IMG/VR virus record: IMGVR_UViG_648276648_000006
Reading direction: 5' to 3' (one strand)
DNA: 6,937 bases
Source of the DNA: a virus
Lineage: Duplodnaviria; Heunggongvirae; Uroviricota; Caudoviricetes
The translations under genes were made by a program, and so were the position numbers. Below the pieces are notes generated by a model. That model did not search any database. It was not told where the DNA came from and saw nothing but the letters and a program-made list of their open reading frames with translations. Below are positions 1 through 6,937 of this stretch, one piece after another. The first letter of the stretch is position 1, and the number at the start of each line of letters is the position of its first letter.

Positions 1-1
1 A

Positions 2-259
2 GCCGGATTACTGGCATCAACAGGGAGCACAGGCGACTCGTATGACAACGCGATGGCTGAGAGCATCAATGGTCTTTACAAAGCGGAGGTAATACACCGT
101 AAGAGCTGGAAAAACCGTGCAGAAGTGGAACTGGCCACACTCACGTGGGTGGACTGGTATAACAATCGACGATTGCTGGGAAGGCTGGGCCATACTCCTC
201 CGGCAGAAGCAGAAAAAGCTCATTATGCTTCCATCGGAAACAATGATCTGGCAGCCTGA
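2..259 (+). CDS. IS3-family transposase OrfB (DDE integrase core), C-terminal fragment; 5' end outside window
   Basis: Frame from position 2 translates to AGLLASTGSTGDSYDNAMAESINGLYKAEVIHRKSWKNRAEVELATLTWVDWYNNRRLLGRLGHTPPAEAEKAHYASIGNNDLAA, stop TGA at 257-259. The SYDNAMAESINGLYKAE...WYNNRRLLGRLGHTPPAEAE stretch is the conserved C-terminus of IS3-family (IS629-like) OrfB. Confidence 0.9.
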   Translation, partial: AGLLASTGSTGDSYDNAMAESINGLYKAEVIHRKSWKNRAEVELATLTWVDWYNNRRLLGRLGHTPPAEAEKAHYASIGNNDLAA

Positions 260-276
260 GTTCACAGATAAAACAC

Positions 277-301
277 TCTCCAGGAAAATCGGGGCGGTTC
301 A
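277..301 (+). repeat. Right terminal inverted repeat of the IS3-family element (approximate extent)
   Basis: Lies between the transposase stop (259) and the element terminus ...GGTTCA (301). The exact IR length cannot be set without the left end. Confidence 0.45.
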
Positions 302-868
302 GACGGCGATATTACAGCGACCGTAACCTTTGCCGGACTGGACTGGGAATCAAAGGCCGATGATACGAATTTTATCAAAGGCGAACCTGTGGATAGTGCA
401 GGAAAGCTACGTTATTCGTTTAAGGAGGTTTCAGCAGTAAGCCTGAATGGTGTTGCCGGAGGTAACGGTTTTTGTATCGACAGTTTTGATATTCAGTTCG
501 ATAACAAACTCCAGACACAGCGTTGTATCGGGACTGGCTCGCCTTATGCAGGAGCAAATATTCCGACTACTTTTACACCGTCCGGTACGGTGACGCTTTC
601 ATGGTCTAAAGCCGCGTGGGAAATCTGGAGTAAAACACTGACTGGAGAAACAGTTCCGTTCAGCTTCACGCTTTCGAATGGAGAGGGGGCATACACTTTC
701 AGTTTCCCGAAGGTTCAGGTGTCAGGTGAATGGCCTGATGGGGGTAATAGCGACATTATCCAGGTTCAATTGAGCATTACCGCAGCAGATGAAGCACCTA
801 CGATAACCAGAAAAAAAAATTCCCCGGCTGCCGTGATCGCAAAAGCCAGTGCTGAGGCGATTAGTTGA
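302..868 (+). pseudogene. Phage major tail (tube) protein gene, 3' portion only; 5' part displaced by the IS insertion
   Basis: Frame is open from the IS junction to TGA at 866-868 (internal GTG at 389 is the ORF-track start). Translation DGDITATVTFAGLDWESKADDTNFIKGEPVDSAGKLRYSFKEVSAV...FSFPKVQVSGEWPDGGNSDIIQVQLSITAADEAPTITRKK... is protein-like. It sits directly upstream of the G/G-T chaperone pair, where lambda-like phages place gene V. No native start or RBS exists downstream of the IS. The functional name is inferred from position, not from recognised sequence identity. Confidence 0.6.
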
Positions 869-916
869 TTTTCCGTTATTCCTCCTGTGGTACTGCCCTA
901 CAGGGGGACGCATTGA

Positions 917-1378
917 ATGAGGTTATGGATGTTTATTCTTAATCAGAAAATTATCATTGGTGGAGAACGCTGGTTTACGCCAATGAAGGACTTAAAACCT
1001 GTAGACGGGTTAAAACTGTTGGTGGCAAGCAGCGATAACGATCAGTATCGCTCCCGTAATGCATTAATCCGTCGCCACATTGAGAAAATGGATGCCAGTT
1101 TGCACGTCGGAACGAAGGAGTTTGATATTTCAAAGGTTTCCGAGGTGGATTCTGTTGATGATTTACTCATTGATAATGCCGCTCGTTATCTGCTGAAAGA
1201 CTGGAAAGGGGTTGGTGAACTGGTTAATGGTGTTGAGGTTGCACTGGAATATACGGCAGAACGAGGGATCGCGCTGCTCAAGCAGAATCCAGAGTTGTAC
1301 TGGCAGATCCTTGCAGAAGCAGCCAGCATCGCCCAGGGTAAAGAGCAGCAGAAGCAGGATACGATAAAAAAGCCATAG
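917..1378 (+). CDS. Tail assembly chaperone, gpG-like
   Basis: 153-codon ORF between the tail tube gene and the tape measure gene. GGGGGA at 903-908 is a Shine-Dalgarno 8 nt upstream of ATG 917 (alternative ATG at 929). Ends in a slippery heptamer followed by an open -1 frame, the hallmark of G/G-T chaperone pairs. Confidence 0.65.
   Translation: MRLWMFILNQKIIIGGERWFTPMKDLKPVDGLKLLVASSDNDQYRSRNALIRRHIEKMDASLHVGTKEFDISKVSEVDSVDDLLIDNAARYLLKDWKGVGELVNGVEVALEYTAERGIALLKQNPELYWQILAEAASIAQGKEQQKQDTIKKP
1366..1372 (+). promoter_or_regulatory. Candidate programmed -1 ribosomal frameshift site (slippery heptamer A_AAA_AAG)
   Basis: A AAA AAG in the G zero frame (codons AAA 1367-1369, AAG 1370-1372), 2 codons before the G stop (TAG 1376-1378). 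The -1 frame is open from 1342 to 1686. Confidence 0.6.
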
Positions 1379-1686
1379 CTGCCCAGCGGTGGTTATCGGA
1401 GTTCGGGGGAGAAAGGGGGGAAAAGGCAAGATGGAAGCGAGAAAAACTCAGGTTGCCACCGATACCGGAACCAGAAATAGACCCGGTGCTTAAGGAGTTG
1501 TTGTACGCCTATTCGGTAATATCCCGTGCCCGACGTTATGCTGGAATGGCTGGGGTGCCTTTGCCTTTATCTCTGACAGAGATAAATGAATATTTAGCCA
1601 CTCATCCGGTATTGATTGAGCGCGATGAATTTGAAGCAGTGATCTTTGCACTGGATGACCAGTATTTTCAGGAGCAGTGTGTGTAG
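1369..1686 (+). CDS. T-like extension of the tail assembly chaperone, expressed as a G-T fusion by -1 frameshifting (not independently initiated)
   Basis: The -1 frame relative to G reads ...AIAAQRWLSEFGGERGEKARWKREKLRLPPIPEPEIDPVLKELLYAYSVISRARRYAGMAGVPLPLSLTEINEYLATHPVLIERDEFEAVIFALDDQYFQEQCV, stop TAG 1684-1686. No ATG start: the ORF-track start at 1453 is TTG. Position immediately upstream of the tape measure gene matches the conserved G/G-T arrangement. Confidence 0.6.
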   Translation, partial: KAIAAQRWLSEFGGERGEKARWKREKLRLPPIPEPEIDPVLKELLYAYSVISRARRYAGMAGVPLPLSLTEINEYLATHPVLIERDEFEAVIFALDDQYFQEQCV

Positions 1687-1806
1687 TTGTTAATTACGTA
1701 CACTCTGTTACAGAGATGTGATGGTGTCTTTAATTAAATCGATGATGCTCCTGGAGAAAAGCATTGCGTGGCCTCGTAATCGCTATATCTACTATTATGT
1801 CGCCTG

Positions 1807-1830
1807 AAACCCACTTCGGTGGGCTTTTTG
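1807..1830 (+). terminator. Candidate intrinsic terminator or stable RNA hairpin in the T-H spacer
   Basis: CCCAC (1810-1814), loop TTCG (1815-1818), GTGGG (1819-1823), then C and TTTTT (1825-1829). This is a 5-bp GC stem with a UUCG tetraloop followed by a U-tract, flanked by AAA/TTT that could extend the stem. Confidence 0.4.
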
Positions 1831-1849
1831 TTGTCTGGAGTTTTAATAA

Positions 1850-4800
1850 ATGGCAGAGCAAACCTCGCGTCTCGCAATAATTATTGATAGCACTGGAGCA
1901 AAAAATAATGCTGACAATCTGACCTCCTCATTAGTCAAAATGACGCAGGCCGGGGAAACTGCTGCAAATAGCGCAGGGAAAGTGACTAAGGCAACAGAAG
2001 ATGAGAAGAACGCGCTCGCAAAATTAAAAGCAGCTATTGATCCAGTTGGTGCCGCAATTGATACTGTCGGTCGACGCTATTCTGAATTAAAGAAATTTTT
2101 CGATAAAGGGCTTATTGATAAAGAAGAATATGAATTTCTTGTCCGTAAACTTAATGAAACCACAGAGGAATTGAGCGGGGTTGCGCAAGCGCAGAGAGAA
2201 GCCGAGAAGGCCGGAAAACTTGCTGCCGCCCAGCAGGAATCGCAGGCTCAGGCCTTTCAAAGAATGCTGGACAAGATCGACCCTCTGGTTGCGGCGCTAA
2301 GAAATCTTGAACAACAGCAGGATGAACTTAATGCTGCGTTTGCATCCGGGAAAATAAATGGTTCTCAGTTTGAGAATTATAGCCGAAAAATACAGGAAAC
2401 ACGGCGAGAGCTTACCGGAGAGGCTCAGGCAGAGCGAGAAGCAGCAAAAGCGCATGATGAACAGGTTGCTGCTTTGCAACGTCTGATTGCTCAACTTGAC
2501 CCTGTCGGAACTGCTTTTAATCGTCTGGTAGAACAACAGAAACAGCTCAATGAAGCAAAAGCTAAGGGGATGCTCTCTCCTGAAATGTATGAGGAACTTT
2601 CTGGAAAACTTCGTGCTATGCGGAGTGAGCTTGAGGTTACTCAATCTCAATTAAGCAAAACCGGAATGTCGGCAAAACAAACGGCTTTTGCTATGCGCAT
2701 GTTGCCTGCACAAATGACGGATATTGTTGTTGGGTTGTCCACTGGTCAGTCGCCTTTTATGGTGTTAATGCAGCAGGGCGGCCAGCTAAAAGATATGTTC
2801 GGTGGGATTGGCCCGGCGATCAAAGGTGTTGGTTCTTATGTGCTGGGATTAATTAATCCTTTTACCCTGGCCGCAGCAGCCGTTGGCGTCTTAGGGCTGG
2901 CTTACTATAAAGGCTCTCAGGAGCAGGACGAATTTAATAAATCTCTTATTCTTACCGGAAATCAGTTGGGGACAACCAGCGGGCAATTGGCCGATATAGC
3001 TCAACGTGCCGGGAATGCGGCTGATTCGACAACTGGCGCTGCGGCGGCAGTATTAAACCAGCTTGTGCGTTCGGGAAAGGTAGCGAGCAGTTCGCTGGAG
3101 CAAGTGACGACAGCGATAGTAAAAACGAGCGAAGTAACAGGAATATCAACCGAACAACTGGTTAATGACTTCAATGAAATTGCAAAGGATCCTGTCAGTG
3201 CCATATCAAAACTTAATGATCAGTACCATTTTCTGACAATTGCGACTTATAACCAGATTAAGGCGCTACAGGATGAAGGGAACCAGCAGGAGGCCGCCCG
3301 CATTGCGACAGAAGCATACTCATCCTCAATGATCCAGCGCACCAACCAGATTAAAGAAAATCTTGGTTATCTTGAGACTGCATGGAAAGCTGTCGCAGAC
3401 TCCGCAAAATGGGCATGGGATTCCATGCTGGATATTGGCCGTGAGGCCTCCCTTGATCAAAAAATCTCAGATGTTCTCCGTCAAATTGATGAAATAGAAA
3501 AAAATACCCGACCCGGAGTTTTCGGGTTAGGTGGCATTGGAGATGGCGGAGCTCAAAATAAAAGGCTGGCACGATTAAAGCAGCAATTGGGCGTACTTCA
3601 AGCAGAAAAAATTGCTCAGGACGTACTAAATTCATCAATAAACGATTACAACAAGCGACAACAGGAAGGAATTGAACTCAGACAGAGAGCAGATGCCTTT
3701 TCAAAACAATATCAGACCCGGGAGCAGCAGAGAGCTAGTGAACTTGCAAAACTGGAAAAACTAAAGAGTCAGTATTCAAAGGAAGAATATAATAATCTTA
3801 TCGCTCAAATAAATGAGCGTTATAAAGATCCAAAGCAACCAAAGGCGAAAGGTTATTCGGATGATGCTGCCCAACGAATGATTGATCATCTGAATCAACA
3901 GAATGCGTTACTAAGTTCACAAACTGAATTAACCGTTAAATTAAGTTCCTCTGAACAGGAACTGGTTAAGTGGCGTCAGCAGATTGCCGACCTGGAGTCA
4001 CGACCGTCATCGAAATTAACCAAGGATCAGAAATCGCTTCTCTTACACCGGGAAGAAATAACCGCGTTGATGGAGAAAAATGTTGCGATTGAAAAAAATA
4101 ACAGGCTAATCAAGGAATCCGCCGAAATAGCTGCATGGCGTGATTCATTGCAGGCTTCGATTGATAATCGTCAACAGGGGTATGATATTCAGATTGCTGG
4201 TTATGGGGTTGGCGATAAAAATCAGCAACGCCAGCAGGAATTACTGCGGATTGAACGTGAATATAACAATCAGCGTCTGCAACTTGAACGTGACTATGCA
4301 GATAAATCCCGTGGGATGTCAAATCATGTTTTTCAGGAGAAAATGCAGGCTCTGAATGATGCTCTGGAACGAGAAAAAGAAATTGTCAGACAGAAAAACG
4401 AGCAGCTCGATATTCAGGCAGGAGACTGGGTTAGTGGTGCCTCCCAGGGATTCAATAACTGGCTGGATGACACTAAGGATATCAGTGAGCAGATAAAATC
4501 AACCACGACTCAGATGTTTGATGGAATGACCGATGCGCTGGGTGATTTTGTCACGACAGGCAAGGCAAATTTTCGTTCTTTCGCTACTTCCGTGATTTCG
4601 GATCTTAGTCGAATAGCATTAAAGGCTTCAATTACTCGGATTTTCGACAGCATTAGTAACAGTTCTTCGGGGGGGATTTTAGGAACTATCGGGAGTGCTA
4701 TTAGTAAATTTATTCCGAATGCAAAGGGCGGTGTTTATGAGTCTCCGTCATTGAACACGTATTCGAACGGTATTTATGATTCCCCGCAATTTTTTGCTTT

Positions 4801-5083
4801 TGCAAAAGGGGCTGGTGTTTTTGGTGAGGCTGGTCCGGAAGCCATTATGCCATTAACACGAACTTCCGATGGTTCTCTTGGTGTCAGAGCTATTAATAGT
4901 AAAAGTGGTAATGGAGGCGGAGATATTACCTATGCCCCTGTATACCAAATCACTATTCAAAATGACGGCCAGAATGGAGAGATTGGCCCTCAGGCAATAA
5001 AAGCACTTATGGGGATGGTTGATCAGCGGGTGCAGGGCAATCTGTTAAATATGCGACGTGATGGGGGAATGTTAAGTGGCTAA
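1850..5083 (+). CDS. H: Tail length tape measure protein (lambda gpH family), 1077 aa
   Basis: GGAG at 1837-1840 upstream of ATG 1850. Translation contains ...[41 protein letters not shown]... and C-terminal ...[20 protein letters not shown]...[10 protein letters not shown], matching lambda gpH motifs (MRMLPAQFTD...GGQSPWLILLQQGGQVKDSFGG; ...NNDGTNGQIGPAALKAV...MRDGGLFSG). Long coiled-coil-like, Q/E/K-rich central region is typical of tape measure proteins. The stop overlaps the M start. Confidence 0.95.
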
Positions 5084-5408
5084 TACGGAAGAATTTCACT
5101 GGTTACCAGAGGATGGAATGAAAACAGAAAATAAACCATCGATAAAAACTGTAAGATTTGGCGATGGTTATGAGCAACGAAGTCCAAATGGACTTAATCA
5201 TTCTCTGCGCGTTTTCACCTGTGATTTCAAAGTTGAGGCGAATGAACGTGATTCATTTGAAAAATTTTTAGCCCGGCATGAAGGCTATAAATCTTTTTTT
5301 GGCGCCCGCCTGGTATTAACAGAAAAATCAGAGTGGTGTGTCGAACGTGGTCAGCGACAGAACATATCACCTATACCGATTTTTCGTGTCAGTTTGACGA
5401 AGTGGTGA
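5076..5408 (+). CDS. M: Minor tail protein M (lambda gpM family), reading frame disrupted near the 3' end by an apparent 1-nt deletion in a T7 run
   Basis: GTG 5076 follows an in-frame TAA and overlaps the H stop by 8 nt. N-terminal part ...[35 protein letters not shown]...[14 protein letters not shown] matches lambda gpM (FRWKVKPGM...VRKVRFGDGYSQRAPAGLN...FLEEHGGWKSF). After the T-run at 5294-5300 the gpM-like C-terminus ([39 protein letters not shown]) is in the other frame and stops at TGA 5411-5413. Confidence 0.85.
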
Positions 5409-5412
5409 TCTG

Positions 5413-6111
5413 ATGCAGGACATACAACAGGAAACGCTGAATGAATGCATTCGTGCGGAGCAGTCGGCCAGCGTGGTGCTCTGGGAAATCGACCTGACCG
5501 AGGTAGGCGGGGATCGCTACTTTTTCTGCAATGAGCAGAACGAGAAAGGAGAGTCTGTCACCTGGCAGAGTCGGCAGTATCAGGCCTATCCCATTCAGGG
5601 GAGTGGATTTGAGATGAACGGCAAAGGTGCCAGTGCAAGGCCAACGCTGAAAGTCTCTAATCTGCACGGCATGGTCACCGGGATGGCGGAAGACCTGCAG
5701 AGTCTGGTCGGCGGAACGGTGGTCAGGCGTAAGGTTTACGCCCGTTTTCTGGATGCGGTGAACTTCGTCAACGGAAACAGTGACGCCGATCCGGAGCAGG
5801 AGGTGATCAGCCGCTGGCGTATTGAGCAGTGCAGCGAACTGAGCGCGGTCAGTGCCTCCTTTGTACTGTCCACGCCGACGGAAACGGACGGCGCTGTTTT
5901 TCCGGGGCGCATCATGCTTGCTAATACCTGCACCTGGACCTATCGCGGTGATGAGTGCGGTTATCACGGTCCGGCGGTCGCGGATGAATATGACCAGCCG
6001 ACATCCGAAATCACGAAGGATAAATGCAGCAAATGCCTGAGTGGCTGTAAGTTCCGCAATAATGTCGGCAACTTTGGCGGCTTCCTTTCCATTAACAAAC
6101 TTTCGCAGTAA
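5413..6111 (+). CDS. L: Minor tail protein L (lambda gpL), 232 aa
   Basis: Translation MQDIQQETLNECIRAEQSASVVLWEIDLTEVGGDRYFFCNEQNEKGE...CSKCLSGCKFRNNVGNFGGFLSINKLSQ is near-identical to lambda gpL as I recall it, with the same length. ATG 5413 overlaps the inferred true M stop (TGATG). Confidence 0.96.
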   Translation: MQDIQQETLNECIRAEQSASVVLWEIDLTEVGGDRYFFCNEQNEKGESVTWQSRQYQAYPIQGSGFEMNGKGASARPTLKVSNLHGMVTGMAEDLQSLVGGTVVRRKVYARFLDAVNFVNGNSDADPEQEVISRWRIEQCSELSAVSASFVLSTPTETDGAVFPGRIMLANTCTWTYRGDECGYHGPAVADEYDQPTSEITKDKCSKCLSGCKFRNNVGNFGGFLSINKLSQ

Positions 6112-6116
6112 ATCCC

Positions 6117-6860
6117 ATGACAGAGACAGAATCAGCGATTCTGGCGCACGCCCGGCGATGTGCGCCAGCGGAGTCGTGCGGCTTCGTGGTGAGAACGCCG
6201 GAAGGGGAAAGATATTTTCCCTGCGTGAATATCTCCGGTGAGCCGGAGGCGTATTTCCGGATGGCTCCGGAGGACTGGCTGCGGGCAGAAATGCAGGGTG
6301 AGATTGTGGCGCTGGTCCACAGTCACCCCGGTGCTCTGCCCTGGCTGAGTGAGGCCGACCGGCGGCTGCAGGTGCAGAGTGATTTGCCGTGGTGGCTGGT
6401 CTGCCGGGGGGCGATTCACAAGTTCCGCTGTGTGCCACATCTTACCGGGCGGCGCTTTGAGCACGGGGTGACGGACTGTTACACGCTGTTCCGGGATGCT
6501 TACCATCTGGCGGGAATTGAGATGCCTGATTTTCATCGTGAGGATGACTGGTGGCGTCACGGTCAGAATCTCTATCTGGATAATATGGAGGCAACGGGGC
6601 TGTATCAGGTGCCGTTGTCAGCGGCGCAGCCGGGCGATGTGCTGCTGTGCTGTTTTGGTTCATCGGTGCCGAATCATGCCGCTATTTACTGCGGCGACGG
6701 CGAGCTGCTGCACCATATTCCTGAACAACTGAGCAAACGAGAGAGGTATACCGACAAATGGCAGCGACGCACACACTCCCTCTGGCGTCACCGGGCATGG
6801 CACGTATCTGCCTTTACGGGGATTTGCAACGATTTGGCCGCCGCATCGACCTTCGTGTGA
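6117..6860 (+). CDS. K: Tail assembly protein K (lambda gpK family), with JAMM/MPN metalloprotease-like and NlpC/P60 domains
   Basis: Translation MTETESAILAHARRCAPAESCGFVV...EIVALVHSHPGALPWLSEAD (JAMM motif HxHx7Sx2D, His codons at 6318-6326)...GVTDCYTLF (NlpC/P60 Cys, about 6477-6479)...VPNHAAIY. Near-identical to lambda gpK as I recall it. Starts 5 nt after the L stop. Confidence 0.95.
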   Translation: MTETESAILAHARRCAPAESCGFVVRTPEGERYFPCVNISGEPEAYFRMAPEDWLRAEMQGEIVALVHSHPGALPWLSEADRRLQVQSDLPWWLVCRGAIHKFRCVPHLTGRRFEHGVTDCYTLFRDAYHLAGIEMPDFHREDDWWRHGQNLYLDNMEATGLYQVPLSAAQPGDVLLCCFGSSVPNHAAIYCGDGELLHHIPEQLSKRERYTDKWQRRTHSLWRHRAWHVSAFTGICNDLAAASTFV

Positions 6861-6937
6861 AAACGGGGCCGAAGCCATCCGGGCGCTGGCCATGCAGATC
6901 CCGGCGTTTCGTCAGAAACTGAGCGATGGCTGGTATC
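6758..6937 (+). CDS. I: Tail assembly protein I (lambda gpI family), N-terminal part; frame disrupted at a G4 run; 3' end outside window
   Basis: ATG 6758 gives MAATHTLPLASPGMARICLYGDLQRFGRRIDLRVKTG, matching the lambda gpI N-terminus, and overlaps K by 103 nt. After GGGG at 6865-6868 the gpI-like sequence AEAIRALAMQIPAFRQKLSDGWY continues in the +1 frame, while the starting frame hits TGA at 6920-6922. Confidence 0.85.

Follow-up and report, generated by a model that had tools for sequence, protein, structure and literature searches.

Organization of the locus

The window, by which we mean the whole 6,937-nt stretch of DNA analyzed here, starts within an insertion sequence and runs on into the tail genes of an Escherichia coli M718 prophage. 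Its sequence is contained unchanged in scaffold GL884111.1 (GCA_000176575.2), at positions 4926-11862 of the source-scaffold stretch L014, with runs of N on both sides. The features that we assigned were the following:

1-301, plus strand: right end (301 nt) of an IS3-family element, an IS629 isoform, by identity to the annotated IS629 of AP000422.1
2-259, plus strand: C-terminus of the IS629 transposase OrfB, 85 codons, stop TGA at 257-259, from Pfam and the ORF listing
261-289, plus strand: promoter-like match TTCACA-17-GAAAAT (9/12), outward-facing, inside the IS end, from a consensus scan
277-301, plus strand: right terminal inverted repeat (IRR), ending in GGTTCA, matching the feature 'inverted repeat from right end of IS629' (25 nt) in AP000422.1
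302-304, plus strand: right copy of a 3-bp target-site duplication, GAC (tube gene codon 133), from the source scaffold compared with the intact gene
302-868, plus strand: 3' fragment of the tail tube gene, codons 133-320 and stop, by 100% identity to the intact 963-nt gene, PF18906 and phrog_290
389-868, plus strand: first possible re-initiation ORF, GTG start, 159 aa, with a weak AAGG about 8 nt upstream; a gene call in the public annotation
917-1686, plus strand: YdaY-type tail assembly chaperone (917-1378) with a -1 frame extension to 1686, from phrog_313 and frame analysis
1850-5083, plus strand: tape measure gene, intact, 1077 aa, from Pfam TMP_2, TMP_4 and Tape_meas_lam_C

The siphovirus gene order of tail terminator, tube, chaperone pair and tape measure was present.

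The right end of an IS629 isoform

An earlier note on this DNA, made from the sequence alone, had read positions 1-301 as the right end of an IS3-family element terminating in GGTTCA at 301. Both the family and the coordinate proved exact, and the element was an IS629 isoform. Compared with the IS629 annotated in VT2-Sakai (AP000422.1), 296 of 301 nt were identical (98.3%, E 3e-148), and the last base of the match was the last base of the reference element, ...GGGGCGGTTCA. Many E. coli plasmids carry copies 100% identical to window 1-301. When translated, 2-259 matched the integrase-core models rve_3 (47.4 bits) and rve_2 (30.2 bits) in Pfam. The IRR pairs with a left terminal inverted repeat (IRL) at L014 3840-3864, and terminal repeats were also detected de novo. 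The termini have the form 5'-TG...CA-3' and are imperfect, with TGAACCGCCCCGGAAATCCTGGAGA at L014 3840 and ...TCTCCAGGAAAATCGGGGCGGTTCA at window 277-301 being 83% complementary over 29 nt.

The left 383 nt of the element could be compared in the same way in the source scaffold, where 371 of 383 positions (96.9%) were identical to IS629 of AP000422.1, starting at its first base. This gives 17 differences from Sakai IS629 in the 684 nt compared. In ISfinder practice, an isoform has at least 95% nucleotide identity to its reference; both sequenced ends lie above this value, and the central ~626 nt of the element lie in an assembly gap. The M718 copy is the same element as the IS629 of VT2-Sakai and VT1-Sakai (AP000400.1), an element whose isoforms include IS1203 and IS3411. 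The copies share the termini TGAACCGCCCC...GGGGCGGTTCA, a 3-bp duplication, a lambdoid prophage as host and probably the orfA/orfB layout.

A tail tube gene interrupted at codon 133

Immediately to the right of the element, positions 302-868 were 100% identical to the 3' part of a 963-nt gene in two related stretches (L002 and L010), base 302 aligning with nucleotide 397 of this gene, which is annotated 'phage tail tube protein' in relatives. The fragment scored 45 bits against PF18906 (Phage_tube_2; cut-off 27), covering profile positions 123-266 of 266, and matched phrog_290 with E 2.7e-57. The intact 320-aa protein scored 111.1 bits against the same gathering cut-off of 27, and its residues 1-300 aligned with residues 1-296 of PDB 8xan_B, 'Major tail structural protein' (E 2.5e-12). 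The assignment of 302-868 to a major tail protein was thus borne out, the protein being a Phage_tube_2 family tube protein. PF18906 was the sole hit in the Pfam scan (E <= 0.01), and families of the lambda gpV type were not among its results.

Two stops, TGA at 257-259 and TAA at 269-271, lie between the transposase frame and the tube frame, which is open over 272-868. No ATG, GTG or TTG start was found in the tube frame upstream of GTG 389, where only the weak AAGG is present, in agreement with the earlier description of a frame open from the junction and lacking a start codon or ribosome-binding site. In the intact gene, AGGAGG precedes the native start, which falls outside the window. The 389-868 ORF probably does not give a functional product.

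The left flank and the target-site duplication

Since the window begins at an assembly gap inside the IS, it shows only the 3' portion of the tube gene. In the scaffold, the interior of the element is represented by 703 N, and ~626 nt are needed to complete a 1310-bp IS629. The sequence left of the gap is ...CAGATCCCTAACGAC|TGAACCGCCCCGGAAATCC..., and then comes orfA (HTH_Tnp_1, 48 bits), the stop codon of which adjoins the gap; the sequence on the right is ...CGGGGCGGTTCA|GACGGCGAT. The C-terminus of orfB (rve_3, 47 bits) is sequenced, and most of orfB, with its catalytic core, lies inside the gap. In a close IS copy in E. coli BR1220 (L001), a programmed frameshift is annotated.

The other IS end, a target-site duplication and the 5' half of the gene had been predicted to lie leftwards, and we found the IRL, GAC and 133 tube codons there in direct succession. 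The two junctions together read ...CCTAACGAC|TGAACC...GGTTCA|GACGGCGAT. The 5' fragment runs for 133 codons and is ended by the TGA with which the IS opens. At this site GAC stands once in the intact gene (CCTAACGACGGCGAT) and on both sides of the IS in the M718 scaffold. IS629 is known to make 3-4 bp duplications and to prefer prophages; in O157:H7, 62% of IS629 copies are located in prophages or prophage-like elements (PMC3271280). Because the 5' part adjoins the IRL and GAC is doubled in M718 and single in the intact allele, the data point to a simple transposition that split the gene, not to a deletion. Of the two outcomes previously considered for this gene, split or truncated, the first therefore applies, and truncation is true of the window only.

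We conclude that, with high probability, a single IS629 of ~1.3 kb entered the tube gene (320 codons) by transposition at codon 133, the host being a Rac-like lambdoid prophage of E. coli M718. The 3-bp target GAC was duplicated, and the 3' fragment (302-868) was separated from the promoter-proximal half, the AGGAGG ribosome-binding site and the start codon.

An IS-mediated loss of the 5' part of the tube gene together with upstream genes would also leave only a 3' part in the window, and an event of this kind is seen in strain DLI.6n (L003), in which an IS adjoins truncated recE-like and tail terminator genes and the intervening genes are missing. In M718, however, the head and tail genes upstream are all present directly left of the IRL, together with the 133 5' codons, and the duplication matches. 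This left flank refutes a deletion, to which we assign a vanishingly small probability.

We also considered that scaffolding had wrongly placed contig ends in a multi-copy IS beside the two halves of an intact gene. The IS interior is replaced by 703 N, the junction contigs were joined only by scaffolding, and the assembly contains several single-base indels compared with close relatives, most of them in short base runs. Apart from GL884111.1, the junction occurs in a single record, OU349840.1, which is listed as 'E. coli M718 genome assembly' (PMC9233328) and was built from the same contigs with 100-N gaps; it is therefore not an independent confirmation of the insertion and was dropped as such, its contigs being identical to the source of GL884111.1. 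Nevertheless, each junction is read through within a contig, and the two flanks, which meet without a gap in the intact gene, both carry GAC. Such a pattern is the signature of IS629 transposition, not a product of misassembly, which makes an artefact extremely unlikely.

An insert larger than one IS629, with two copies or extra DNA in the gap, would fit the unsequenced interior and a gap estimate (703) somewhat above the 626 nt needed for a 1310-bp element. The estimate is, however, within ~80 nt of the one-copy expectation, and the left and right parts are co-oriented, end at IRL and IRR and are flanked by one duplication. A larger insert is accordingly very unlikely compared with the insertion of a single IS629.

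Distribution of the interrupted and intact alleles

The IS-tube junction was found in 0 of 5,426 complete E. coli genomes. The intact gene was present in many of these, some being 100% identical over window 302-1400. IS and phage sequence occurred close together in only two of the 5,426 genomes, with the IS positioned elsewhere in both. An exact 38-nt junction pattern gave 0 matches in species-representative genomes and 0 in JGI metagenome contigs. Several other E. coli have Rac-like prophage tail modules that match the phage part of the window (302-6937) at 99.97% identity, with no mismatches and two 1-bp gaps. Relatives retrieved by the tape measure protein were only those with an intact tube gene; this protein is too common, its exact product being present in 1456 collection blocks. 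The source scaffold came up only with the frameshifted M-like product and the 159-aa fragment. The insertion seems to be recent and specific to this strain.

As relatives of the M718 prophage carry intR, xisR, ralR, recT and ydaY, genes of the Rac family, the prophage belongs to this family. In this it differs from the hosts of Sakai IS629: the M718 prophage is Rac-like and non-Stx, and its insertion site is the one absent from the complete genomes searched.

An IS629-like copy in BR1220 (NZ_CP093068.1; L001 6732-8041), 97.3% identical over the right end, is comparable in that it is co-oriented, lies in the same tail module and is flanked by a 3-bp duplication (CAG in BR1220). It differs in being an independent event in ydaY, 731 bp downstream (after window base 1032), with the tube gene intact.

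In E. coli K-12 Rac, an IS5 interrupts lomR, and both ydaY and what is left of the tape measure gene are pseudogenes. The K-12 Rac cryptic prophage and the M718 prophage are of the same family, and in both the tail modules are decaying by IS elements and point lesions; K-12 Rac is without most structural genes, whereas the M718 prophage keeps an essentially complete head-tail module.

Consequences for tail assembly and for transcription

Neither fragment of the interrupted gene holds the whole tube fold, and no functional tube protein is therefore expected from the locus. An intact tube gene elsewhere in the prophage would have spoken against the earlier reading; the head-tail stretches retrieved, from the source prophage and from relatives, showed only one PF18906 gene and no second tube gene. 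Together, these results suggest that no full-length tube protein is made and that the prophage would by itself be unable to build tails unless another prophage complements it. Of the proposal that the prophage cannot build tails unless complemented, the split gene and the lack of a second one in the retrieved stretches were thus observed, and the tail loss would follow from them. Another prophage in the M718 genome could supply tube protein.

IS629 and the phage late genes are oriented alike. In lambdoid late transcription, antiterminated read-through could express genes beyond a co-oriented IS, and the downstream tail genes could thus still be transcribed from the late promoter in M718.

It had also been suggested that the IS end drives transcription outward into the tail operon. 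We found only the one 9/12 match at 261-289, and promoter-like sites in the region (2) were not above chance (2.6 +/- 1.7 in shuffles), which does not favor this suggestion. At window position 289, the C of Sakai IS629 is replaced by T in the M718 isoform, so that GAAAAC becomes GAAAAT, a better -10-like hexamer. This substitution, together with the outward match, would be in line with a regulatory role in which the IS is a mobile promoter for the downstream tail genes or for the 159-aa fragment. A 9/12 match is, however, as frequent in shuffled sequence, no function is known for half a tube protein, and the insertion occurs in one strain only among the genomes searched. Being unique in this way, it shows no sign of selection, and a promoter function of the IS seems to us highly doubtful.

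A reversible switch can also be pictured, in which precise loss of the IS and one GAC would restore the tube gene. Excision of IS629 can be aided by the IS-excision enhancer described for Shiga-toxin-producing E. coli (PMC9397093). As an alternative, GAAAAT might give Q-independent transcription of the tail genes. We hold both readings to be exceedingly improbable for M718.

Interruption of the tube gene by a single IS629 is, in these terms, ordinary: a known element and a known kind of gene knock-out. An annotation of the M718 prophage should give the tube gene as a pseudogene, with IS629 as the interrupting element, and treat the 159-aa 'gene' at 389-868 as a fragment. The locus adds one further example of prophage genes inactivated by IS629, which has been documented at scale in O157:H7 (PMC3271280), and another step in the decay of Rac-like prophages.

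Neighboring phage genes

Downstream of the tube fragment, ydaY ends in ATA AAA AAG CCA TAG, with A_AAA_AAG in the correct phase at 1366-1372 and the -1 frame open to 1686. A conceptual 256-aa fusion covered positions 13-246 of 258 of phrog_313, 'Tail assembly chaperone', and YdaY alone covered 13-149. This arrangement looks like a lambda G/GT-type programmed frameshift. The chaperone ORF and the start of the tape measure gene are 163 nt apart, and a terminator-like hairpin lies between them at 1810-1823, CCCACTTCGGTGGG followed by CTTTTTGTTG; the number of such hairpins in the region was close to chance. An Rfam scan of the window found nothing.

Two short base runs downstream of the tape measure gene differ from close relatives. 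At 5294-5300 there are 7 T compared with 8, which shifts the frame of an M-like minor tail gene (5076-5408) and gives a product of 110 aa with a changed C-terminus compared with 112 aa. The 7-T form also occurs in nine other short public contigs, most of which have further indels, and is ambiguous between a real allele and a homopolymer sequencing error. At 6865-6868, just past the stop of a K-like gene and at the start of an I-like tail assembly gene, there are 4 G compared with 5 in relatives; the source scaffold has no called I gene, and this run is likewise ambiguous between a real frameshift and a sequencing error.

Upstream of the window, further 1-bp indels were seen in the source scaffold at L025 1245 and 6355. 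Because of one of these, the large terminase is in two pieces, of 283 and 164 aa, and another lies near the end of the major capsid gene, called as 402 aa compared with 379 aa. The single-base indels of this assembly could be sequencing errors or real decay; if the upstream ones are real, the prophage is defective in several ways.

Lesions of the tube gene and tail module in other strains

The tube gene was also broken in other E. coli samples, with C385T (Q129*) in L024, L029 and L032, 1-bp deletions in L028 and L033, and a 10-bp deletion in L030; some of these lesions may be assembly errors. A lesion hotspot at tube codons 129-157 was rejected as an ascertainment effect: the lesions cluster because the search used the 159-aa ORF, which is called only with a lesion just upstream of GTG 389.

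In L031 (run DRR386267), the contig start ...TCTGGAAATATAGGGGCAAATCCA (1-28) joins the tube gene at window base 313, 11 bp past the IS629 site. The 24-mer TCTGGAAATATAGGGGCAAATCCA, which we take to be an IS2 terminus, is the end of an annotated IS3-family element inside the tape measure gene of L003, and this junction would be an independent IS hit in the tube gene. The DLI.6n stretch itself contains two IS3-family insertions (L003 4046-5302 and 9414-10653), the second of which splits the tape measure gene.
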